Shown in pieces: positions 1,682-11,857 of a stretch of DNA of 64,000 bases. The notes beneath the pieces are model-generated. The model saw nothing but the letters and a program-made list of their open reading frames with translations. It was not told the DNA's origin and did no database searches. Each line of letters opens with the position of its first letter. Position 1 is the first letter of the stretch. The DNA comes from Deltaproteobacteria bacterium (lineage in GTDB: Bacteria > Myxococcota > Kuafuiibacteriia > Kuafuiibacteriales > Kuafuiibacteriaceae), in assembly GCA_011526105.1 (NCBI GenBank), contig WYAZ01000135.1:83190-147189 (forward strand), in the 5' to 3' direction. The translations under genes were made by a program, and so were the position numbers.

Positions 1682-2956
1682 GTGGGTCGCGCCAAAGACG
1701 AGGACGACGCCGTCGCCCTTCCGGGGTCGAAGCGCGCGGAGTCCGGGGCGGAGGTGATCGAACTCAGTCCTCGTCGCCTGCCGGACGCGGACTCGGATCC
1801 GGATGCACCCCCGTCGGATTTCGCAGTGCCCATCGACTCCGAGGTGGTCTACGCAGAGCCGCTGCCTCCCGAGCCGCCGCGGGCCTTGGTTCAAGCCCCA
1901 GTCCGTCGTCCCGTGCTGCGCGGGACCAGCGATCTGGGCATCGTCATCGAACCCCCGGTGTCGGCGTACCGCTCGCGGGGGCCGGTGCTCGTAGTGAGTC
2001 AGGACCCTTGGGCGGTCTCGATCCTCACCGGGCGAAAGGTCGATGTCATCGCGAGCACCGGGATCGATTCGGCGCTCGCCCTCGCAACCCAGATTGCGCC
2101 CAGCGTGATGGTCCTCTCGCTGCAGCTCTCGGATGGCAGCGCCTTCGATCTCCTCGATGTGCTCGCGGGACAACATGCACCCTTCGAGGCGGTCGTCATC
2201 CTTCGGCCCGACCAGTGGGATTATGCGCAGGCTTGTTTTGCCGCCGGTGCCGCCGAGGTCGTCGAGCACGGCGACACCGACCAACTCCTCGCGGTGCTCT
2301 CCGGACTGGCCGCGGTGGATCGAGGCACGGAGAATCGAGCCGAGCTCCAGGTCCCCATCAGTGTTCAGGTCTCGGGCTACTCCTGGAATCTCGAGACGCT
2401 GGATCTCCGCGCTACGGGCATCGCGGTCGCTGGGGTACCGCCGCTCGAGAAGGGCTCCACCGTTCGTCTCATTCTCAGCCTACTCGGCCGTCGCATGGAT
2501 CTGCGCGGTCAGCTCACCCGGAGCTGGGACGATCGAGGCACTTCCTGTGCGGCGTTTCGTTTCGTGGGGCTGGCCCCAGACCAGCGCGAGTTCATGCGCG
2601 CCGCAGTGGGCGAGTACGGTGGTCACAAGGTTGAGGACGCGCTCGTACACTCGTGGCGCCGCGAGATCCGCTCCATCGTAGGCACCTTCGACAGTCACCG
2701 GCACGACTCGAGTCGGCCTCAGGGGCCCTCCGTCGTTCACACACACACCTCGACCATTCACCGGCCCATCAAGGTCGTGGAGGATGGGGAACTCGAGAAG
2801 CATCCCGGGTGGTCGACCGGCACCATCGACTTCGAGGCCGACGACTGGGACGAGCGCATTCGGCGCACCATCCGAATCCTGCTCTTGGTGCTCTTTGTGG
2901 TCGCGGGTGGGCTCGGCGTTTTACACATACTCGAGTGGCTGTTGACTTCGAAGTAG
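1682..2956 (+). CDS. receiver-like domain plus PilZ domain protein with a C-terminal TM anchor
   Basis: The central region looks like a CheY-type receiver (VLVVSQDPW…MVLSLQLSDGSAFDLLDVL…AVVILRPDQWD…GAAEVVEHGDTDQL). It is followed by a PilZ-like segment (RAELQVPISVQVSG…LRATGIAVAGV…VRLILSLLGRRMDLRGQLTRS…AAFRFV) and a C-terminal hydrophobic helix. The start is probably GTG at 1682; the N-terminus is uncertain. Confidence 0.6.
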   Translation: MGRAKDEDDAVALPGSKRAESGAEVIELSPRRLPDADSDPDAPPSDFAVPIDSEVVYAEPLPPEPPRALVQAPVRRPVLRGTSDLGIVIEPPVSAYRSRGPVLVVSQDPWAVSILTGRKVDVIASTGIDSALALATQIAPSVMVLSLQLSDGSAFDLLDVLAGQHAPFEAVVILRPDQWDYAQACFAAGAAEVVEHGDTDQLLAVLSGLAAVDRGTENRAELQVPISVQVSGYSWNLETLDLRATGIAVAGVPPLEKGSTVRLILSLLGRRMDLRGQLTRSWDDRGTSCAAFRFVGLAPDQREFMRAAVGEYGGHKVEDALVHSWRREIRSIVGTFDSHRHDSSRPQGPSVVHTHTSTIHRPIKVVEDGELEKHPGWSTGTIDFEADDWDERIRRTIRILLLVLFVVAGGLGVLHILEWLLTSK

Positions 2957-2976
2957 GCGCACGCGAGGCCTCGAGG

Positions 2977-3627
2977 ATGTCCGGGGCGCTCGTTCCCTTC
3001 TACTTCGACCTCATCTCTCCCTACAGCTACCTCGCGATCTCGCTCATCGACCGTCGATCGGACCTGCCGGCCTCGATGTTTGAGCTTCGCCCGGTGGCGC
3101 TCGGCAGCGTCTTCTCCGCGCTCGAGGTCATGGGTCCCGGCGACGTGCCGTATCGGCGGCGCTACGGACTCGCCGATGTGCTGCTTCTAGCTCAGCACTA
3201 TGGGCTGCCGCTCGAGGGTCCGCCCAGACACCCGTTTAATAGCCTATACGGGCTGCGGGCCGTGAGTGCTGTGGACGCGCCGGAGCAGCGTTTTGATCTC
3301 GCGCTGCGCCTGTTTCAGGCCGCGTGGGGCGAAGGCTTGGATCTCGAGAAGGCGGACGTGCTGTCGAGATGCTTTGAAGAAGTTGGCCTCGACTTCGATC
3401 CGGAGGAGGTCGCGAGTCGGCGCGAGACCCGCCAAGCCATCAAGTCCCACACCCAGTCGCTCCTGGCCGCCGGCGGCTTTGGCGTGCCCACCTTCGACGT
3501 CGCCGGGCAGCTCCTGTTTGGACACGACCGCTTCGAGCTCCTCTTGGCGCTCGTGAGCGGAGCGGTGCGCCCGGAGCCGGAGAAGCTCGAGCGGCTCTTG
3601 GCCCGGCCCCGTCCAGGGGCTAGCTGA
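2977..3627 (+). CDS. DsbA-family 2-hydroxychromene-2-carboxylate isomerase-like thioredoxin-fold protein
   Basis: Start refined to ATG 2977 (MSGALVPFYFDLISPYSYLA…), the canonical N-terminus of HCCA-isomerase/DsbA-like proteins. The ORF-track extension upstream (from 2653) is R/H-rich and overlaps the previous gene. Confidence 0.7.
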   Translation: MSGALVPFYFDLISPYSYLAISLIDRRSDLPASMFELRPVALGSVFSALEVMGPGDVPYRRRYGLADVLLLAQHYGLPLEGPPRHPFNSLYGLRAVSAVDAPEQRFDLALRLFQAAWGEGLDLEKADVLSRCFEEVGLDFDPEEVASRRETRQAIKSHTQSLLAAGGFGVPTFDVAGQLLFGHDRFELLLALVSGAVRPEPEKLERLLARPRPGAS

Positions 3628-4369
3628 GCTTCCGGATCTCCTCCACCACCCAGTCTGGGTCGTCGAGCGGCAGCTCATGACCGGCGCTCGGATGCACGCG
3701 CACCGGGCTCCTATACCGTTCGGCCAGCCGATAGGTGCAGCTCGGATCGACGAAGCGATCGTGCGCGGAGACGAAGAACTCGAGCGGCGTCTCCACGCGC
3801 TCGGGGGTCTGAAACCGCATGGCGGCGACCACCTGCGCTCGCATGACCGAGAACGAGACCGGTGCGGATCTCGAGACCTCGCCGAACGCTCGAGCGAGGT
3901 CTTGCTCGTCGCCTCGGTGATTGGTGATCAGCTTCAGGAGACGACTCTCGCGGCGCATGGGATCCGGTTCACGCATCATCGCCATGAGGGGGCCGAGGTT
4001 CTGAAGCCGCAAGCGGTCTTGCGGCCGGCTCAGGTTGCCGGCGCTCGAGTTGACGATCACCGCGATCTCGAAGTCGCTCGGGTAGCGATGAACCCAGTCG
4101 AGGGCGATCATGCCCCCGAGGGAGACCGCGAAGATTCCGAAGCCTCCTTCGGTGGCGCGCAGGTCCGAGAAACGCAGCCGGAGATCGTCCGAGATGCCTT
4201 CGATCTTGCTGGGCGAGGGACGCGAGACCTCGGTGCCAACCCCCGGAAGATCCAGGCAGACCACCTTCGATCCGAGGGTTTGTCGGAGGCGCTCGGGGAG
4301 CTCGCCCCAATGCCTCTGCTCTCGGCTGAGGCCGCGCAGGAGGAGCCAGTTTCTCGCCGGTTCGCTCAC
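3620..4369 (-). CDS. alpha/beta-hydrolase fold protein
   Basis: 249 aa with a GxSxG nucleophile elbow (AVSLGGMIAL) and a C-terminal His (PSAGHELPLDDP), typical of an esterase/lipase-like alpha/beta hydrolase. Confidence 0.7.
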   Translation of the reverse strand: MSEPARNWLLLRGLSREQRHWGELPERLRQTLGSKVVCLDLPGVGTEVSRPSPSKIEGISDDLRLRFSDLRATEGGFGIFAVSLGGMIALDWVHRYPSDFEIAVIVNSSAGNLSRPQDRLRLQNLGPLMAMMREPDPMRRESRLLKLITNHRGDEQDLARAFGEVSRSAPVSFSVMRAQVVAAMRFQTPERVETPLEFFVSAHDRFVDPSCTYRLAERYRSPVRVHPSAGHELPLDDPDWVVEEIRKLS

Positions 4370-4481
4370 GACGTGTCTTAAAGAGGAGTGGGTGAGCTTT
4401 GACCACCGGGGGCTGCGTCCATCGCAGCGTCCATGTTATCGAAACCTCGGGGAAGCCCGAGAGGCGGTCTAGGACGAGCAT

Positions 4482-6143
4482 ATGAAGTTGGAGATCCGTC
4501 ATCGCGAGTCGCAGGCCACCTATGAGGTCGAAACCAGCGGTGCCATCATGGGCCGCGAGCCGGCTCGCAGCGACATCTCGGTCGCGGACAAGTCCGTCTC
4601 TAAACAGCACGCGCGCATCTTCTCCAAGGACGGGGCCTGGTACCTCGAAGACCTGGGCTCCTCGAACGGCACGTTCCTGAATGAGCAGCGCATCGAGGAG
4701 GCGGTTGTCCTCGTGCCTGGGGCTACGTTCTCGCTCTCAGACAACCACTTCGAGGTGATGCGAGTTATCCGTGACGAGGGATCGGTCTCGGAGGTGAGCC
4801 CCGCCTTCGTGGTGGGTCCAGGCATGGATACCAACAACGAGGAGGCCCGTGATCCTGGGCCCATGTTCATCGGCGATTCGGCCGACGACGAAAACGACCC
4901 CCTGCTTCGAGAGACCGAAGAGGAGGACCGGCCGGGTTTTGGTGCCGTGTTCACCGCCGCCCCGCGAGCGCTCGCGCACTATCTGGTCGCGGTCCCGCTC
5001 TTCGCGGTCAACCCCATGGGCTCGCTGCGCAAGAGCATCGAGGAGCAGAAGCATCCGCCGATGCAGACCTGGCAGCTCATGGGCTGGGCGCTTCCGGCGC
5101 TGCTCGCCACCGGACTCGTTTCATGGGTCACCGCGTCCATCGCCGCGCTGGTGCACGGAACCTTCTCGCTTGGGGACGCGCTTCCCATTGGCCCGTTGGT
5201 GGGCGCTGCCATCGGGGCGGTGGTGAGCGGATTTGCGCTCCACCCCATCCTGACATGGGTCATCGACAAACTCGGTGGCGAGAGCAACGAGAGCCAGCGG
5301 ACGAACTACTTCATCACGATGATGACGGTGTCGATCCTTCTCGCGGCCCCTGGGGCGCTGGGGTCGCTCCTCGCGCTCATCCCGCTGCCTTTCATCGGGA
5401 TCCTCCCGCTCGCGCTTCAGCTCGTGGCCACCCTGTTCAGCATCCTGGTGATGTATCGGTGGTTTCAGCACTTCGAGGTCGCGGCCTGGTTTCAGAAGGT
5501 GATCCTCGTGCTCGGGCTCTTGGCGTGCATCTCCACCGGTCTCGCGCTGGTGAACGTGATCCGCGTGACCATCGCTGGTGGAGGTGGAGGGGACATCGCC
5601 GCGGCGGTCGATCCCGAGAACCCGGACGCTGTCCCCAGCGACGCGGAGCTGCTCGCTGCCAAAGAGGCGGCTGAGCGCGAGCAGGCCGGCGCCGACACCG
5701 AACCCGGCACCGAGCCGAAGCCCGGCGCCGAGCCGAAGCCCGGCGCCGAGCCGAAGCCCGAGCCGAAGCCCGAGCCGAAGCCCGAGCCGAAGCCCGAGCC
5801 GAAGCCCGAGCCAAAGCCCGAGCCAAAGCCCGGACCAGAGCCGAAGTCCGAACCAGAGCCGAAGCCCTCGGGCGACTCGGGCTATCCGACGTACTACAAG
5901 AAGCTCGTGGCGATCGAAGCCGTGGTCGACGCCGACCCCACGCTCCTGCGCGACAAGAACGTGCAGCGACTCTACGCACGCATCAAAAAGGTGCAGTACG
6001 AGACCACCAAGAAGGCCGACGGGGGCAAGAAGAAGAAGAAAGACCCCTGGCAGGCCGAGATCGACCGAAAGCTCGCCGATGCGGAGGCCTTCGACGAGCT
6101 CAAGGGCACCGTCGAGGCTCTCCACGAGCGGCTCTTCGACTGA
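4482..6143 (+). CDS. FHA-domain protein with polytopic membrane domain and EPKP tandem-repeat linker
   Basis: N-terminal FHA signature ([48 protein letters not shown]…[10 protein letters not shown]). An acidic linker follows, then about 5 TM helices, then (EPKP)n low-complexity repeats and a Lys-rich C-terminal tail. Confidence 0.75.
5703..5867. repeat. coding tandem repeat: 3 x 18 nt (ggcgccgagccgaagccc) followed by about 9 x 12 nt (gagccgaagccc), encoding (GAEPKP)3(EPKP)9
   Basis: Perfect and near-perfect direct repeats read directly in the sequence, lying inside the FHA-protein CDS. Confidence 0.85.
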
Positions 6144-6161: not shown

Positions 6162-9100
6162 TCAGTCGAAGCGAATGTCCAAGAAGTATTGAGGCAGGAT
6201 GCGAGAGTCGATCCAGTGCCCGACCTCGAGATAGTACGTGCCCGGGGCCAGTGCGTTGACCCCTACCCCAGGCGTACTCGCCTCGCTGATCTCGGAGCAT
6301 ACGCTAGAGGTCGGGATCGAGGTGTCGTCGTTCGACGTGATCTCGGTCCCGGCGCTGTCGTACAACGCTAGCCGAGTGTCGATGCCAGTGCACGAGGTTG
6401 GATCGCCCACGTTGCTGTAGGTTCGCGCCACCAGCGCGCGGGTGGCCCCCGCGGGCACGGTGAAGGCGTAGAAGTCGACATCTGCGACGGGGTCGATGCT
6501 CCCGGCGATGGTGCGCGTGGTGGCCGTCACCGCCCCGCTCGCCTGGGCGCCCGCGATGTCTGAGTTGGGTTCGACCTCGAGGAGCACGTTGCCTTCGAAC
6601 TGGCAGGTGGACGAGCAACCGTCACCGTTGGCGGTGTTGCCATCGTCGCAAGCCTCATTGGCTCGAGACTCGATGCGGCCGTTGCCACACGCGGGATTCA
6701 AGATCGTCACCCGCAACGTCAGTGGTCCGGTTTGGCCGCCCTCGGGGCGAACGACCAGATAGTACGCCCCGGTCGGCAGGTTGCGCGCGAACGCGTCATC
6801 CACCGTGATCTCGGCGCAGTCATTGGCGGCACCAAACGTCTTCCTTCCGCGAAGGGTCACGAGGTCCGCCTCGTAGAGCTCGAGCGCGTTGTCGGAGTCG
6901 CAGCTCGCGCCGCTGGTGGTGGTGGCAGTGATGGTCTGACCGGCCTGAGTGACGTTCACGCGGACGGTTTGGTAGGCGATGTTTGACGGAAGGTTCAGGT
7001 TGGCCACCCCGCTCGGCGGGTTGATGGTCGCCGCGATCTCGAGCTGACAGGTGGCGGAGCAGCCATCGTTGGCATCGGTGTTGCCATCGTCGCACTGCTC
7101 GTTGGTCTCCGCGACACCGTTGCCGCAGATATCGACCGCACGCACCGTCACCCGGAGTTCGTATGGGAAGCTCTGGGTCTCGTCTCCTCGGAAGCCGGTG
7201 GCGACGAAGTACTGCCCCGGGGGGAGGCGAGGATCGGTCGCGAAGGCGGGCTGAGAATGAGCGCACAGCTCGGGGCCGGAGTCGTCGTCGAAGTCCATGG
7301 TGTTGAGGTCGGCGTCTGCCACGTAGATCACGGGGTCGGCGTTCGCAGTGCAGTTCGGGGCGGTGGGGGTGAAGACCGCGGCCTCGATGTAAGCCTCGGC
7401 GGTCAAGGTCACCTCGTAGAACTGAAGGCGTCCGCCCGGGGCGGTGCCGCTGAAGGTCTGGCTCGCGGGCGGGCCACTCAGCGTGCCGACGGGTTCGATG
7501 CGGCAAGTCGCGCTGCAGCCGTCGCCCGGCGTGGTGTTGCCGTCGTCGCACTGCTCGTTGTCCTCGAAGACACCGTTGCCGCAGATGTCGGCTTCGAGCA
7601 GCTTGATCTCGACTTGGTAGGGGAACGTCTGGCCGTCTGTGCCGTAGAAGCCGACGCCGAGGAAGTAGGTGCCTGCTTCGAGGAACGCGGCCGAATCCTC
7701 ATTGGGATCGACGTGCGGACACTCGCCGCTGCCCCCCGCTGCGAAGGTGACTTCAGCGCCGCTGGAGTTGAAGATCGCGATCTCGGCGTCGTCGGCTGGG
7801 CAGGTGGGCATGGACGGGGCAAACAGCTGGGCGTCCACGTACGCATCGGTGGTCACCTCGAGCACGTACAGGCTGTAGTTCAGCGCCTCCGCGGTGCCGG
7901 AGAAGACCTGGGTGCCGGGCGGGCCGGAGATCATGCCTTCGACCTCGAGTTCGCAGGTGGCGGAGCAGCCATCACCGTCGAGCAGGTTGCCGTCGTCACA
8001 CTGTTCGTTGCGCCCCGCTTCCCAGACGGTGTTGCCGCAGCCCGGCGCGATGAGCCGCACGAGCAGGTGGTAGGGACCCGCCTCGAAGCCGCTCACGCGG
8101 ATGTAGTAGGTCCCTGCGGCGAGCTCGGCCGCAGCGAGATCGGAAGCCGGATCGATGATGGAGCAGGCGCCGCTCCCCGAGGGGGCCTCCGCGCCGCTGT
8201 CGTCATCGCTCGTCAGCTCTTCTTCGGCGGCGTTGTAAAGCGTGAGGACGGTGTCCGTCGCGCAGCCGCCTTGACCGTCGCTGGTCTCCGCATAGAGCGA
8301 GTAGCCGGCCGGGACCGTGACGCTGTAGAAGTCGACGTCGCTCGAAGGTTCGAGCGCGCCCTCGACCCCGCCACCCGCGCCGAGGTTCACCGCCGAGGCG
8401 ATGTCGTCGTTGGGTTCCACTTCGGCGATGGTCTGCGCGACGGAGCGAGTCTGCTGGGCGGAACCGCCTCCGCTCGAGGCCGACAGCACGAAGACAGTGC
8501 TCTCGGTGACGTTCTGGGTCATGGTGCCGCTGGCTGCGGCGCTGAAGCCAGCGACCGCGGTTCCATTCGCGGTGAGGGTGAGGGTGGTGGCGTTCTGGGT
8601 GGCCCAAGTGATGGTGACCTCTGCGCTGGCGCCGGTGAAGAATGCGGGCGCGACGGTGAACGTGTCGATGACCGGGGCCGCCTCGGCGGTGACGGTCAGC
8701 GTGCGGGTGTCGACCGCGCTGTCGTTGCGCGCCTCGAGCGTATAGGTCGTGGAGGCCTGAGCGAGGGTGACATCGAAGGTTCCGCTCGCCACATTCGTGG
8801 TCTCTGTGGTGATGACCTCGCTCCCTCGAAGGATTCGCACCTGGTTCGCCCCGGCGGTGATCCACTGAAGAGTGCTGACGCCATTGAGACGTCCCGGATT
8901 CGGATTGGCGGTGAAGGAGATGACCGCGACCGCGTTCGCGTCGAGCGTCACACTCACTTCCTTTGTGGTCGAGCCGTTCGCGTTCTCCGCCTTCAGCGTG
9001 AAGGTCGTGCTCGCGTCGATCGCAGCGCTTTCGACGCTGCCGGTGAGCTCCGTCGAGGCTTCGAGCACGGTGCCGCCCGGCGCGGCGGTGATGGAGACCT

Positions 9101-9278
9101 TGGTGGCGTTCTGGACGCTCCAGCTCAAGGTCACGCGTTCGCCCCGGGCGACCGCGGCCTTCGAGGCCTGGAAGCTGCCGATGGTCGGCCCGTCCGTCGG
9201 ATCGGTGCTGTCCCCGCAGCCGTACAACGGCAACAGGGCGATGGCGGAGGAAGTGAGTAGGAATTGTGCGAGCTTCAA
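6162..9278 (-). CDS. large surface lipoprotein with Ig-like repeats, pre-peptidase C-terminal (PPC)-like domains and 6 Myxococcus cysteine-rich repeats
   Basis: Lipoprotein signal MKLAQFLLTSSAIALLPLYGC. Repeated units of the form CGNG(V/R)xExNEQCDDGN(T/L)xxGDGCSATC occur 6 times. PPC-like segments (DVDFYSVTVPAGYSLYAETSDG…; DVDFYAFTVPAGATRAL…) are interleaved. Codon usage is native. Confidence 0.8.
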   Translation of the reverse strand: MKLAQFLLTSSAIALLPLYGCGDSTDPTDGPTIGSFQASKAAVARGERVTLSWSVQNATKVSITAAPGGTVLEASTELTGSVESAAIDASTTFTLKAENANGSTTKEVSVTLDANAVAVISFTANPNPGRLNGVSTLQWITAGANQVRILRGSEVITTETTNVASGTFDVTLAQASTTYTLEARNDSAVDTRTLTVTAEAAPVIDTFTVAPAFFTGASAEVTITWATQNATTLTLTANGTAVAGFSAAASGTMTQNVTESTVFVLSASSGGGSAQQTRSVAQTIAEVEPNDDIASAVNLGAGGGVEGALEPSSDVDFYSVTVPAGYSLYAETSDGQGGCATDTVLTLYNAAEEELTSDDDSGAEAPSGSGACSIIDPASDLAAAELAAGTYYIRVSGFEAGPYHLLVRLIAPGCGNTVWEAGRNEQCDDGNLLDGDGCSATCELEVEGMISGPPGTQVFSGTAEALNYSLYVLEVTTDAYVDAQLFAPSMPTCPADDAEIAIFNSSGAEVTFAAGGSGECPHVDPNEDSAAFLEAGTYFLGVGFYGTDGQTFPYQVEIKLLEADICGNGVFEDNEQCDDGNTTPGDGCSATCRIEPVGTLSGPPASQTFSGTAPGGRLQFYEVTLTAEAYIEAAVFTPTAPNCTANADPVIYVADADLNTMDFDDDSGPELCAHSQPAFATDPRLPPGQYFVATGFRGDETQSFPYELRVTVRAVDICGNGVAETNEQCDDGNTDANDGCSATCQLEIAATINPPSGVANLNLPSNIAYQTVRVNVTQAGQTITATTTSGASCDSDNALELYEADLVTLRGRKTFGAANDCAEITVDDAFARNLPTGAYYLVVRPEGGQTGPLTLRVTILNPACGNGRIESRANEACDDGNTANGDGCSSTCQFEGNVLLEVEPNSDIAGAQASGAVTATTRTIAGSIDPVADVDFYAFTVPAGATRALVARTYSNVGDPTSCTGIDTRLALYDSAGTEITSNDDTSIPTSSVCSEISEASTPGVGVNALAPGTYYLEVGHWIDSRILPQYFLDIRFD

Positions 9279-9447: not shown

Positions 9448-10131
9448 TTAAGTCCCCGTCGGGTCGAGAGGCTGCCGCTTGGGGGCGCCGAGGAGCTCGA
9501 GATTCCGGCCGCCGCGGCCCGCCACGGACGCTTCCACCATCGCTCGGTAGAGGGCTCGGAGTTGCTCGGCGTTCTCTCGCTCACCAAAGTGCACAAGACA
9601 TGCGGCCATCGCTTCGATGGTCGACAACCTCGTTGGGTCGACGCTTCGGCGAAGGGTGTGCGGCGCCCGCTGCACGTCCTCGAGCGAGAGGGGGTAGAGG
9701 CTTGGCGCTCGTGCGAGACGCCGCGCGAGCCGACCCGCCTGGCGCCAGTTCCCATCCGGCAGCACCACTCGGATGAATGACGACTCGGCATCATCGAGCG
9801 CGGAGGATCGACTTCGCGTGCGCGTGGGGTAGAGCAGGTGTGCGTTCACGGGAAGCTGCGACAGCTGAAGCGGCAACACATCGCGAAGGCCATAGTCGAG
9901 GATCTCGGTCCCGGGCAGGGCCAGCGCAGCGATGCGCGCGGTGTTGGTGCTTCGCCAGCGTTCTTTGGCGTGACGCAGCACGAGAAAGCGTACGCGGCTC
10001 TGGATCTGCGGGACCTGCGCGCAGATGCAGTGGGCGTCGAGTTGCCAGCAGCGCGGGCAGCGGCCCTCGAGATCCGACGGCGTCTTCGACCGCTGACTCA
10101 CGGGTGGACGGTAGCACGAACCGCGTGGCAT
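9448..10131 (-). CDS. DTW-domain protein (tRNA-uridine aminocarboxypropyltransferase family)
   Basis: Start refined to ATG at 10131 (MPRGSCYRPP…). It has a Cys cluster CPRCWQLDAHCIC near the N-terminus and a DGNW (DTW-variant) motif (RVVLPDGNWRQAGRLARR). The longer ORF-track version would overlap the SDR gene. Confidence 0.65.
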   Translation of the reverse strand: MPRGSCYRPPVSQRSKTPSDLEGRCPRCWQLDAHCICAQVPQIQSRVRFLVLRHAKERWRSTNTARIAALALPGTEILDYGLRDVLPLQLSQLPVNAHLLYPTRTRSRSSALDDAESSFIRVVLPDGNWRQAGRLARRLARAPSLYPLSLEDVQRAPHTLRRSVDPTRLSTIEAMAACLVHFGERENAEQLRALYRAMVEASVAGRGGRNLELLGAPKRQPLDPTGT

Positions 10132-10141
10132 AGAGCGACCG

Positions 10142-10966
10142 GTGACCGTCAGCCTGCACAACAAGACCATCTTCATCACCGGCTCGAGCCGCGGCATCGG
10201 CCTGGCCATGGGCCTGCGCTTTGCTCGCGCGGGCGCCAACGTGGTGATCACCGGCAAGACCACCGAGCCGCATGCCAAGCTCCCCGGCACGATCTTCACG
10301 GCGGCGGCGGAGATCGACAAAGCGGGTGGACGAGGCTTGGCCGTGAACATGGACGTGCGGAACGACGACGAGGTGAAGGCCGCGGTCGAGAAGGCGGTGT
10401 CCACCTTCGGCGGCATCGACGTGCTCGTGAACAACGCGAGCGCCATCTCCCTCACGGACACCCTCGGTACCTCGATGAAGCGCTACGACCTCATGCATCA
10501 GGTCAACGTACGGGGCACGTACCTGGTCTCGCAGGCCTGCTTGCCGCACCTATTGAAGGCTTCGAATCCGCACATCCTCAACAACTCTCCGCCGCTCAAC
10601 ATGGAGGCGAGGTGGTTCCAGAACCACGTCGCGTACACCATGACCAAGTACGGCATGAGCATGTGTGTGCTCGGTATGGCGGAGGAGTTCAGGGAGCGCG
10701 GCGTCGCGGTCAACGCGCTCTGGCCCAAGACCACGATCGCCACCGCCGCGATTGAGCACGTCGTCGGGGGCGAGGAGATGATGCGTTGCTCTCGCAAGCC
10801 CGAGATCGTGGCGGACGCCGCGTACCACATCATCACCAAGCCCAGCCGCGAGACGACCGGGCACTTCTTTCTGGACGAGGACGTCCTTCGCCGCGAGGGG
10901 GTCACCGACTTCTCGGGGTATGCCGTGGATCCGTCGCGGGACCTGTTTCCAGACTTCTTCATCTGA
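10142..10966 (+). CDS. SDR-family oxidoreductase (HSDL2-like short-chain dehydrogenase)
   Basis: Rossmann motif TGSSRGIGLAMG at the N-terminus, NNAS, and a catalytic YxxxK (YTMTKYG). Confidence 0.85.
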   Translation: MTVSLHNKTIFITGSSRGIGLAMGLRFARAGANVVITGKTTEPHAKLPGTIFTAAAEIDKAGGRGLAVNMDVRNDDEVKAAVEKAVSTFGGIDVLVNNASAISLTDTLGTSMKRYDLMHQVNVRGTYLVSQACLPHLLKASNPHILNNSPPLNMEARWFQNHVAYTMTKYGMSMCVLGMAEEFRERGVAVNALWPKTTIATAAIEHVVGGEEMMRCSRKPEIVADAAYHIITKPSRETTGHFFLDEDVLRREGVTDFSGYAVDPSRDLFPDFFI

Positions 10967-10984: not shown

Positions 10985-11857
10985 ATGTCAGAGTTCGGCC
11001 TCCCGGGTCCCCGCGCTGAACCCCAGAAATATCCGGCGCGTCTCGTGCATTGGATCGGCGAGACCGTGGATCTGCGTAGCCCCATATCGGTGCCCCCGCC
11101 CTGGGTTCGACCCACTCAGGGATTCCTGCTCGGCTTGCTCCCCGCTCTGGGCTGGCTCGGGCTCGATCTCGTCCGAGGTGGCTCACCGGCCTCCGCCCTT
11201 CGCCAAGAATGGGACGTGCTGGTGTACCTGTTCGCTGTCGGTACCGCGCTGCTGTCGCTCTTTGGGGCGGCGGTGGGTCGGCTCGAACGACGCTGGCGGG
11301 CCGAGAGCCTGCGGCTGTCCGATCTGGCCCTCACCGATCCGATGACCGGTCTCAGGAACCGGCGCTACTTTCAGGCGCGATTCGAAGAGGCTCATCGCCT
11401 CGCGCGTCGGGAGCGCGAGCCTCTTTCGCTCGCGATCATCGATCTGGATCGCTTCAAGGAGGTCAACGACCACCATGGTCATTTGGCTGGAGACCAGGTT
11501 CTACGTGCAGTGGCGGCGGCGCTTCGGCGCGTCGTGCGCTCTGGAGAGACACTCGCTCGGGTGGGTGGCGAGGAGTTCGCGTTGCTCCTGCCCCGCACCG
11601 ATGAGTCCGAGGCTGAGCGGGTCGCGGAGCGCGTTCGTGCCGCGATCGAGAGCGCGAGCGTGCGCGTGCCAGGCTTGGGGCAGCCTCTGTCGGTCACCGC
11701 CTCCGTGGGGGTCGCCTCGAGCACGGGGCTTCAGAACGGGGATGGACGAGCCGCTCTATATCGGGCGGCAGACCAGGCTCTGCACGTGGCCAAGGCACAC
11801 GGTCGAAACCGGGTCGAAGTGACGGGACCGTTACCCTTTGTGCACGCCTGCGCCTGA
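10985..11857 (+). CDS. GGDEF-domain diguanylate cyclase with N-terminal membrane segment
   Basis: TGLRNRRYF, DLDRFKEVND, RVGGEEFALLLP (GGEEF active-site variant). Two N-terminal hydrophobic helices. Confidence 0.85.
   Translation: MSEFGLPGPRAEPQKYPARLVHWIGETVDLRSPISVPPPWVRPTQGFLLGLLPALGWLGLDLVRGGSPASALRQEWDVLVYLFAVGTALLSLFGAAVGRLERRWRAESLRLSDLALTDPMTGLRNRRYFQARFEEAHRLARREREPLSLAIIDLDRFKEVNDHHGHLAGDQVLRAVAAALRRVVRSGETLARVGGEEFALLLPRTDESEAERVAERVRAAIESASVRVPGLGQPLSVTASVGVASSTGLQNGDGRAALYRAADQALHVAKAHGRNRVEVTGPLPFVHACA

Follow-up and report, generated by a model that had tools for sequence, protein, structure and literature searches.

An FHA-domain membrane protein with an EPKP-repeat spacer and its apparently undescribed family in the Myxococcota

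The FHA gene and its product

The subject of this analysis is a plus-strand gene at positions 4482..6143 of a 64,000-nucleotide stretch of contig WYAZ01000135.1 (positions 83,190 to 147,189 of the forward strand; GenBank assembly GCA_011526105.1, Deltaproteobacteria bacterium, family Kuafuiibacteriaceae), the whole of which is called the window below. The gene, referred to here as the FHA gene, encodes a protein in which an FHA domain is followed by a polytopic membrane domain, a spacer containing perfect EPKP repeats and a small C-terminal domain. It belongs to what is apparently an undescribed, Myxococcota-restricted family of at least 170 clusters, and its membrane and C-terminal domains are absent from Pfam, NCBIfam and the PDB.

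The open reading frame (ORF) is a genuine gene, with an ATG start, 553 codons and a stop. Its GC content at third codon positions (GC3) is 0.85, which is typical of genuine genes in the window, where the overall GC content is 65%. Residue 1 of the protein lines up with residue 1 of its homologues, and the start codon call is therefore correct. Six parts make up the product: the FHA domain, an acidic linker, an amphipathic helix, five transmembrane (TM) helices, a spacer composed of hinge, helix and EPKP array, and the C-terminal domain. Two AlphaFold (AF2) models are referred to throughout, a shallow one built from four sequences, which was mediocre, and a deep one built from a 109-sequence alignment of residues 150-553. 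Model confidence is given as the predicted local distance difference test (pLDDT). The features of the gene, with the evidence for each, are as follows.

4482..6143, plus strand: whole gene (GC3 of 0.85; both flanking genes on the minus strand)
4482..4766, plus strand: FHA domain, residues 1-95, Pfam envelope 23-85 (Pfam; alignment to solved FHA domains; family conservation)
4767..4937, plus strand: acidic, disordered linker from the FHA domain to the membrane, residues 96-152 (composition; pLDDT 26-37; variable length and composition in relatives)
4938..5045, plus strand: juxtamembrane segment, residues 153-188, a PKAxAYYLxxVP amphipathic helix followed by NPxGxVR (hydropathy and helical moment; pLDDT about 97)
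5067..5576, plus strand: five-helix TM core, residues 196-365 (hydropathy; AF2 pLDDT about 97; positive-inside counts)
Residues 196-225, plus strand: TM1 (deep AF2 model)
Residues 236-263, plus strand: TM2 (deep AF2 model)
Residues 270-297, plus strand: TM3 (deep AF2 model)
Residues 307-330, plus strand: TM4 (deep AF2 model)
Residues 335-365, plus strand: TM5 (deep AF2 model)
5577..5687, plus strand: Gly5 hinge, acidic stretch and short helix, residues 366-402, the start of the predicted periplasmic spacer (deep AF2 model)
5686..5867, plus strand: Pro/Glu/Lys tandem array (Tandem Repeats Finder; sequence; pattern count; low pLDDT)
5877..6140, plus strand: C-terminal domain, residues 466-553, 88 amino acids (pLDDT about 97; C-terminal hidden Markov model; conservation)

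The family and its distribution

A first search returned three full-length relatives with 35-44% identity to the FHA-gene product, in which every part of the protein has a counterpart, the last 88 residues among them. A profile of the membrane domain alone, searched exhaustively (without a word index) against 1.84 billion representative proteins, matched 170 proteins at E<=1e-3, 155 at E<=1e-10 and 116 at E<=1e-30. These 170 relatives stand for clusters at 50% identity, and the steep drop-off of the profile scores indicates a discrete family. The 149 of them that were listed were scored with hidden Markov models (HMMs) for the three conserved modules, namely the FHA, membrane (TM) and C-terminal (CT) domains. 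All three modules occur in the order FHA-TM-CT in 108 of the 149, while 22 have TM-CT, 12 have TM only and seven have FHA-TM; the incomplete layouts are mostly short fragments. The membrane domain is present in every relative. Against HMMs built from the relatives, the FHA-gene product scores 117.8 bits for FHA, 296.2 bits for TM and 94.9 bits for CT, and it shows the layout that was used to recognize members, with the three modules in order and a low-complexity spacer before the C-terminal domain. In a local hmmsearch, the CT and TM profiles recovered 133 and 152 known members, respectively. A preliminary description of this DNA, made from the sequence without database searches, had called the architecture unusual. 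The architecture is indeed undescribed, yet it is how the proteins of this family, which comprises at least 170 clusters, are normally built.

When 185,579 genomes, one for each species, were scanned, 21 full-length loci were recovered, all in metagenome-assembled genomes (MAGs) of Myxococcota. Members with names are called only 'FHA domain-containing protein' or 'hypothetical protein', and come from MAGs labelled Myxococcota, Myxococcales or 'Deltaproteobacteria'. The full-length loci from the species genomes have at most 35% identity to the FHA-gene product, with 40% as the top figure for a partial match, and the closest relative among 5.8 billion protein clusters has 44% identity over the best aligned segment. 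As nothing exceeds 44% identity, the source lineage of the protein seems to be poorly sampled. When the family profile was searched against PDB sequences, FHA domains were all that matched.

The FHA domain

The N-terminal domain had been proposed to be a phosphothreonine-binding FHA domain, and the assignment is borne out by Pfam model PF00498, which matches residues 23-85 with E=1.3e-18 and 67.6 bits against a cut-off of 20.7. The same model is matched by all 81 family members searched. The signature motifs G24-R25, S40-K-Q-H43 and N62-G63-T64 are in register with those of the solved FHA domains GarA, 1uht and 3gqs, and R25, S40, H43 and N62 are the predicted phosphothreonine-binding residues. 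Across the family (81-84 members), G24 and R25 are invariant, while S40, H43, N62, G63 and T64 are at least 90% conserved. The preliminary description had named two observations that would speak against it, namely a lack of conservation of the FHA motif residues and the absence of the TM segment from orthologues; as the motifs are conserved and the membrane domain occurs in every relative, neither was made. The AF2 model from four sequences has eight strands in the FHA domain, but pLDDT is below 50 at residues 25-42 and 60-62.

Judged by these residues, the FHA head appears to keep everything needed for binding a phosphothreonine peptide, and it is reasonable to regard the product as a putative membrane-bound reader of phosphothreonine marks. 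Lacking a signal peptide, the FHA domain is taken to work in the cytoplasm. The linker that follows it is acidic, with 15 Asp plus Glu against three Lys plus Arg in residues 100-160.

The canonical set of FHA residues is kept in the FHA-gene product and in the relatives P0001, L003, L022 and L023. A different picture is seen in a clade of 'Archangium' MAG loci (L004-L021; for example, L004 at 2491-4269), in which SRRQ replaces SKxH and VPQG replaces SSNGT. In this clade, a five-residue loop deletion follows the altered motif, and the Arg and Ser are retained while the His and Asn are lost.

The membrane core and its topology

The hydrophobic peaks of the protein run from residue 200 to 365, and in the deep AF2 model pLDDT is about 97 in the membrane domain and likewise in the C-terminal domain, falling to 50-68 in the spacer between them. 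The earlier suggestion of a membrane domain of about five helices is thus supported by hydropathy and by the deep model. In the same model, the juxtamembrane segment forms two helices, residues 153-176 and 178-188. Outside the FHA domain, conservation is highest in three places, all on the predicted cytoplasmic side: the juxtamembrane sequence PKAxAYYLxxVPxLxxNPxGxVR, the TM2-TM3 loop and the TM4-TM5 loop. The TM2-TM3 region carries the motifs GFxxHP (250-255) and LKGxSDxxSRTNY (264-276), and the TM4-TM5 loop carries YxWxxxF (325-331), which extends to YxWxxxFxV.

Charge counts over the 109 aligned sequences separate the two sides of the membrane. The mean number of Lys plus Arg is 2.82 before TM1, 2.83 in the TM2-TM3 loop and 1.01 in the TM4-TM5 loop, which are the segments proposed to be cytoplasmic. 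On the proposed outer side, it is 0.28 in the TM1-TM2 loop, 0.32 in the TM3-TM4 loop and 0.83 in the flank after TM5; this flank is acidic throughout the family, with a mean of 1.83 Asp plus Glu against its 0.83 Lys plus Arg. The best-supported topology is accordingly a predicted one with the N-terminus inside, five crossings and the C-terminus outside. Because the number of crossings is odd, the part of the protein after TM5 is predicted to be periplasmic.

This prediction turns on helix 153-176. Were it to span the membrane, the C-terminus would come to lie in the cytoplasm. The protein would then have a sixth TM or re-entrant helix and both ends inside, and would act as a membrane-anchored scaffold with recruiting domains at either end, the EPKP array serving as an entropic spacer. 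The helix is moderately hydrophobic in the FHA-gene product (about 1.4 on the Kyte-Doolittle scale, calculated by hand), and 18% of family members reach 1.6. In addition, the C-terminal domain, with its high charge, many lysines and lack of cysteine, is like many cytoplasmic helical bundles. The family averages, however, argue the other way. The mean hydropathy of the helix is 1.19 against 1.53-1.91 in the TM helices, while its helical moment (0.81 against 0.36-0.56) is twice theirs. Position 162, in mid-helix, is charged in 75% of members, and prolines 161, 172 and 178 are present in 67-96% of members, P172 and P178 in 94-96%. Further, six crossings would place the three Lys/Arg-rich segments outside, a strong violation of the positive-inside rule across all 109 sequences. 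A protein with both ends in the cytoplasm is thus considered unlikely, and helix 153-176 is predicted to be an amphipathic helix that lies on the cytoplasmic face of the membrane without crossing it.

The resemblance of the membrane domain to Yip1 is less easily settled. The preliminary description had called its hydropathy Yip1-like, and Pfam does give sub-threshold matches to this family. The Yip1 model (PF04893) scores 15.5 bits (E=0.016) against the FHA-gene product, with a cut-off of 28.6 bits. The best score in the family, that of P0002, is 27.4 bits (E=3.6e-6) against the same cut-off; six of 81 members have E<=0.01 and none reaches the gathering score. The family consensus matches DUF1129 (E=0.0014, 18.7 bits) and Yip1 (E=0.0027, 18.1 bits). 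Yip1 is the sole recurrent membrane-family match, with alignments that cover positions 22-171 of the 173 in the profile, always in one register. Both families are part of clan CL0112, for the members of which a transporter role has been suggested but not proven (PMC6682643).

Profile-profile comparison did not strengthen the link. E. coli YohC, a genuine Yip1 protein (123 bits), was used as the reference, and a 30-sequence alignment of the TM domain gave an hhalign probability of 0.2% against it. Against a six-species YohC alignment, assembled from plasmid-collection matches, the probability was 0.1-0.8%, a weak negative since this template is shallow (effective sequence number, Neff, of 2.7); a metagenome scan for YohC relatives had returned only 100%-identical E. 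coli copies. Like the FHA-gene product, Yip1 family proteins (PF04893; YohC/DUF1282) have five predicted TM helices and an N-terminus inside. Unlike it, the bacterial ones are about 200 amino acids long and lack the FHA domain, the spacer and the C-terminal domain, and they have no known function (PMC6682643). The membrane domain is therefore best described as an unclassified five-helix domain with a possible distant kinship to the Yip1 clan, in which its membership is not demonstrated. A separate observation concerns L114, a 425-residue protein annotated as Yip1 family on a Croceibacterium atlanticum plasmid (NZ_CP011453.2, 57752-59029). Its Yip1 match is preceded by an N-terminal extension of about 40 residues and followed by more than 200 others, which suggests that bacterial Yip1 domains are sometimes fused to extra regions.

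A possible kinship with Yip1 raises the alternative that the five-helix core is a channel, a transporter or an accessory subunit of one, perhaps distantly related to Yip1 and switched through its FHA domain by phosphorylation in the manner of Rv1747, with the spacer and C-terminal domain as accessories. Yip1 and DUF1129 are, after all, the only membrane families touched in Pfam, and conserved polar residues (H254, R273, N275 and W327) lie in or beside the helices. However, every match to the Yip1 clan is sub-threshold and the comparison with YohC-type alignments is negative; the conserved residues gather in the cytoplasmic loops and do not line the helices; and no transporter partner gene is conserved nearby. 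Pure transport would also leave the strictly conserved spacer and C-terminal domain unexplained. A transport role is accordingly rated as improbable, somewhat more so than the arrangement with both ends inside.

The C-terminal domain

The C-terminus had been taken for a basic, Lys-rich tail completing the protein. Instead, residues 466-553 form a conserved domain, with helices at 468-484, 486-490, 492-514 and 522-552 in the deep AF2 model. The lysines at K516-K520 are only a loop between the last two of these helices. Conserved positions include Y468, E479, the DPTLL motif at 485-489, Y498 and V544, and the CT HMM matches about 130 of the 149 listed relatives. Lys/Arg and Glu/Asp are very abundant in the domain, and cysteine is absent. 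On the evidence of the model, it is a small and basic domain, conserved and predicted to be folded, with three helices.

The spacer and the EPKP array

After TM5 comes the Gly5 hinge (residues 366-370), and the short helix of the spacer lies at 387-401. A disordered, Pro-rich stretch then runs to about residue 465. The tandem array within it begins with three (G-A/T)EPKP units, continues with seven perfect EPKP copies and ends in degenerate ones. The seven consecutive perfect copies (residues 423-450, nucleotides 5748-5831) agree with the perfect EPKP repeat described earlier. At the DNA level, the 12-nucleotide unit GAGCCGAAGCCC is present in 11 copies within 5712-5867, eight of them exact and three with one mismatch. 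With one mismatch allowed, this unit has 13 matches in the whole window against 1.26 expected, a number reached in none of 100 shuffles. The near identity of the DNA copies points to a recent expansion of the array by replication slippage. The array has the composition of a polyproline-II rod; if it formed a polyproline-II helix, a 60-residue stretch of the EPKP type would be expected, on general structural grounds, to measure roughly 150-200 Å. Database matches of the Pro/Glu/Lys array to TonB, trypanosome PARP, SslE and the linker of 2-oxoglutarate dehydrogenase E2 were rejected as compositional similarity.

A spacer of 56-211 amino acids (median about 110) separates TM5 from the C-terminal domain in all members. 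Its composition varies widely, with 1-29% proline and 4-42% alanine. The recurrent layout is an Ala/Glu/Lys-rich, helix-prone part after the hinge, followed by a proline-enriched part up to the C-terminal domain; the proline fraction is 0.17 in the last 40 residues compared with 0.07 in the first half. Tandem repeats of their own, with at least three exact copies, were found in 20 of 130 members, and the units all differ (DGDKVDAK, KPADT, EPAKV and others). A spacer that is always present, with variable composition and differing repeats, would be expected if its length and extension, and not its sequence, were under selection. Thus, length and extension, rather than sequence, appear to be conserved, and the EPKP array is a single lineage's recent version of a compositionally variable spacer.

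Genomic setting

The FHA gene lies between unrelated genes on the opposite strand and is therefore monocistronic. Upstream and divergent is a gene for an alpha/beta-hydrolase at 3620-4369 on the minus strand (Abhydrolase_6, E=4.3e-14; GC3 0.82). A plus-strand ORF at 3677-4381 (234 amino acids) was considered as an operon partner and rejected, having a GC3 of 0.68, no Pfam match and no homology to what lies upstream in relatives; it is no more than a shadow ORF of the minus-strand hydrolase gene. Downstream and convergent, at 6162-9278 on the minus strand, is a gene for a 1038-residue secreted protein with PPC domains and cysteine-rich repeats, whose stop codon is separated from that of the FHA gene by 18 bases. 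This protein contains two PPC pre-peptidase domains, four TIGR02232/DUF4215 myxobacterial cysteine-rich acidic repeats and a DVUA0089-family C-terminal region. Its repeats fit a Myxococcota source for the window.

The preliminary description had placed the gene in a signalling neighbourhood, citing a receiver-PilZ hybrid at 1682 and a GGDEF protein at 10985. Both genes are real. In the protein encoded at 1682-2956 on the plus strand, a PilZ domain occupies residues 216-307 and a receiver domain is not detected at E<=0.1, while the GGDEF protein is confirmed by Pfam. Unrelated genes on both strands intervene between each of them and the FHA gene, and the argument from a signalling neighbourhood does not stand. 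No neighbours are shared between the window ORFs and 22 related loci, nor in the annotated contexts of five diverse relatives. Synteny is thus not conserved, and the neighbourhood gives no clue to the function of the family. The best 25 of the 36 Pfam families matched by the 42 ORFs of the window include no MotA_ExbB or ExbD family and no kinase or phosphatase family. A scan of the window for RNA genes gave zero Rfam or tRNA matches.

Two pairs of neighbouring ORFs overlap as listed. A DSBA-like ORF at 2653-3627 on the plus strand (domain at residues 114-298) overlaps the PilZ ORF by about 300 nucleotides, and its real start is probably further downstream. Similarly, a DTW-domain ORF at 9448-10461 on the minus strand and a short-chain dehydrogenase ORF at 10142-10966 on the plus strand overlap by about 320 nucleotides; the DTW domain begins only at residue 134, and the listed start of its ORF is therefore probably too far upstream.

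Comparison with known envelope proteins

In GltG of Myxococcus xanthus, a cytosolic FHA domain is joined through a TM helix to a long, disordered periplasmic stretch that is proline-rich and TonB-like, and a small folded domain in the periplasm forms the C-terminus (PMC3169522, PMC11761067). This component of the Agl-Glt gliding machinery (MXAN_4867, PglI) comes from the same phylum as the FHA-gene product and has the same order of modules. It differs in having a single TM helix, a second FHA-like domain, a TonB_C domain and a conserved glt gene cluster, whereas the FHA-gene product carries five TM helices, ends in an unrelated domain that is entirely helical, and is encoded by a gene without conserved neighbours. 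The possibility that the protein is itself a GltG was rejected, as the GltG equivalog model NF033760 scores 16.3 bits against a cut-off of 650, in the FHA region only. GltG is nonetheless its nearest documented analogue.

TonB and TolA resemble the family in having a charged spacer, Pro-Glu/Pro-Lys or Ala/Glu/Lys helical, between the anchor and a small C-terminal domain, and spacers of both styles, TonB-like and TolA-like, are found at one position in the family, in different members. The FHA-gene product, in contrast, lacks a TonB_C or TolA_C domain, nor does it have a lone N-terminal anchor bearing a stator-binding motif; what it shares with these transducers is confined to low-complexity composition. 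Other membrane proteins with a cytoplasmic FHA or FHA-like module include FhaB/FipA Rv0019c, the ABC exporter Rv1747 and YscD/EscD of type III secretion systems, in which the fusion brings Ser/Thr-kinase signalling or assembly cues to bear on the envelope. The best NCBIfam match of the FHA region is to FhaB_Rv0019c (E=9.8e-17, 61 bits against a cut-off of 125), and Pfam Yop-YscD_cpl also matches there. All of these matches fall short of the family cut-offs and involve the FHA domain alone; in its membrane and C-terminal parts, the protein is unrelated to FhaB, Rv1747 and YscD/EscD.

The likeness to TonB, TolA and GltG suggests another alternative, in which the protein is an energy transducer of their type, pulled by a proton motor like ExbB, TolQ or AglR, with the EPKP array as a rigid rod that conveys force to the outer membrane. 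The array does match the Pro-rich segment of the NCBIfam TonB model NF008084 (E=1.8e-7; residues 407-458, profile positions 60-112), and the layout is similar to that of GltG. In addition, the contig of one relative carries an ExbB gene and two ExbD genes about 8 kb away. However, the TonB match is compositional, with 31.3 bits against 315, and it is accompanied neither by a match to TonB_C (PF03544) in the FHA-gene product nor by a score near that required by the GltG model. The anchor has five helices rather than one, the spacers of most relatives are Ala/Glu/Lys-rich or otherwise different, and the ExbBD genes are neither adjacent to the family gene nor conserved at other loci. An energy transducer is thus a very improbable reading, by far the least favoured of those considered.

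Proposed function and its significance

Taken with the predicted topology, the conserved modules suggest a phosphothreonine-dependent inner-membrane adaptor of GltG-like layout, which would hold a small domain out into the periplasm at the end of a spacer that varies among members. This is the reading we prefer, tentatively, and it may well be wrong. In such an adaptor, one of the many myxobacterial Ser/Thr kinases would phosphorylate a cytoplasmic partner or the kinase itself, and the cytoplasmic FHA head would capture the phosphothreonine mark at the membrane, tethered by the acidic disordered linker to the amphipathic helix on the inner membrane face. The membrane core would anchor the complex and possibly oligomerise or gate, and the spacer would carry the C-terminal domain across part of the periplasm to an envelope-side partner. 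Membrane core and tethered periplasmic domain would together couple the phosphothreonine event to that partner. What the analysis establishes is the order of domains, their conservation, the size of the family and the lack of a conserved operon, whereas the topology, actual phosphothreonine binding, the periplasmic partner and the direction of information flow are all inferred.

Several points weigh against such an adaptor. The topology is a prediction, and the moderate hydrophobicity of helix 153-176 in the FHA-gene product bears directly on it. The charge and the absence of cysteine in the C-terminal domain are as typical of cytoplasmic as of periplasmic helical domains. No solved structure resembles the membrane domain or the C-terminal domain, and structure therefore offers no hint of function. 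Phosphothreonine recognition may have been lost or changed in the large clade L004-L021, which is without the FHA His and Asn, and thus binding is perhaps not universal in the family. Gene neighbours differ in every lineage examined, the best-matching Pfam families of the window include no kinase or phosphatase, and no experiment or genomic association ties the family to any process.

A bolder form of the proposed adaptor would make the family a new class of trans-envelope adaptors, in which a phosphothreonine mark is coupled, via a new five-helix membrane fold and a periplasm-spanning spacer whose length can be tuned, in this protein an expandable EPKP rod, to a new periplasmic three-helix domain that engages the cell wall or outer membrane. 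This extension is doubtful. If it were true, Ser/Thr-kinase signalling would cross the inner membrane without a conventional receptor.

Myxobacteria have among the largest bacterial repertoires of Ser/Thr kinases. To our knowledge, few myxobacterial FHA 'readers' have known outputs. Should the topology prove to be as predicted, the family would represent a second, GltG-like way of linking cytoplasmic phospho-signalling to the envelope, and the in-frame 12-nucleotide repeat would be a natural experiment on spacer length. If the topology is wrong, this would still be an unannotated family that merits domain definition. Either way, current understanding is not overturned, and the FHA gene is an entry point to a conserved family of readers that comprises at least 170 clusters at 50% identity.

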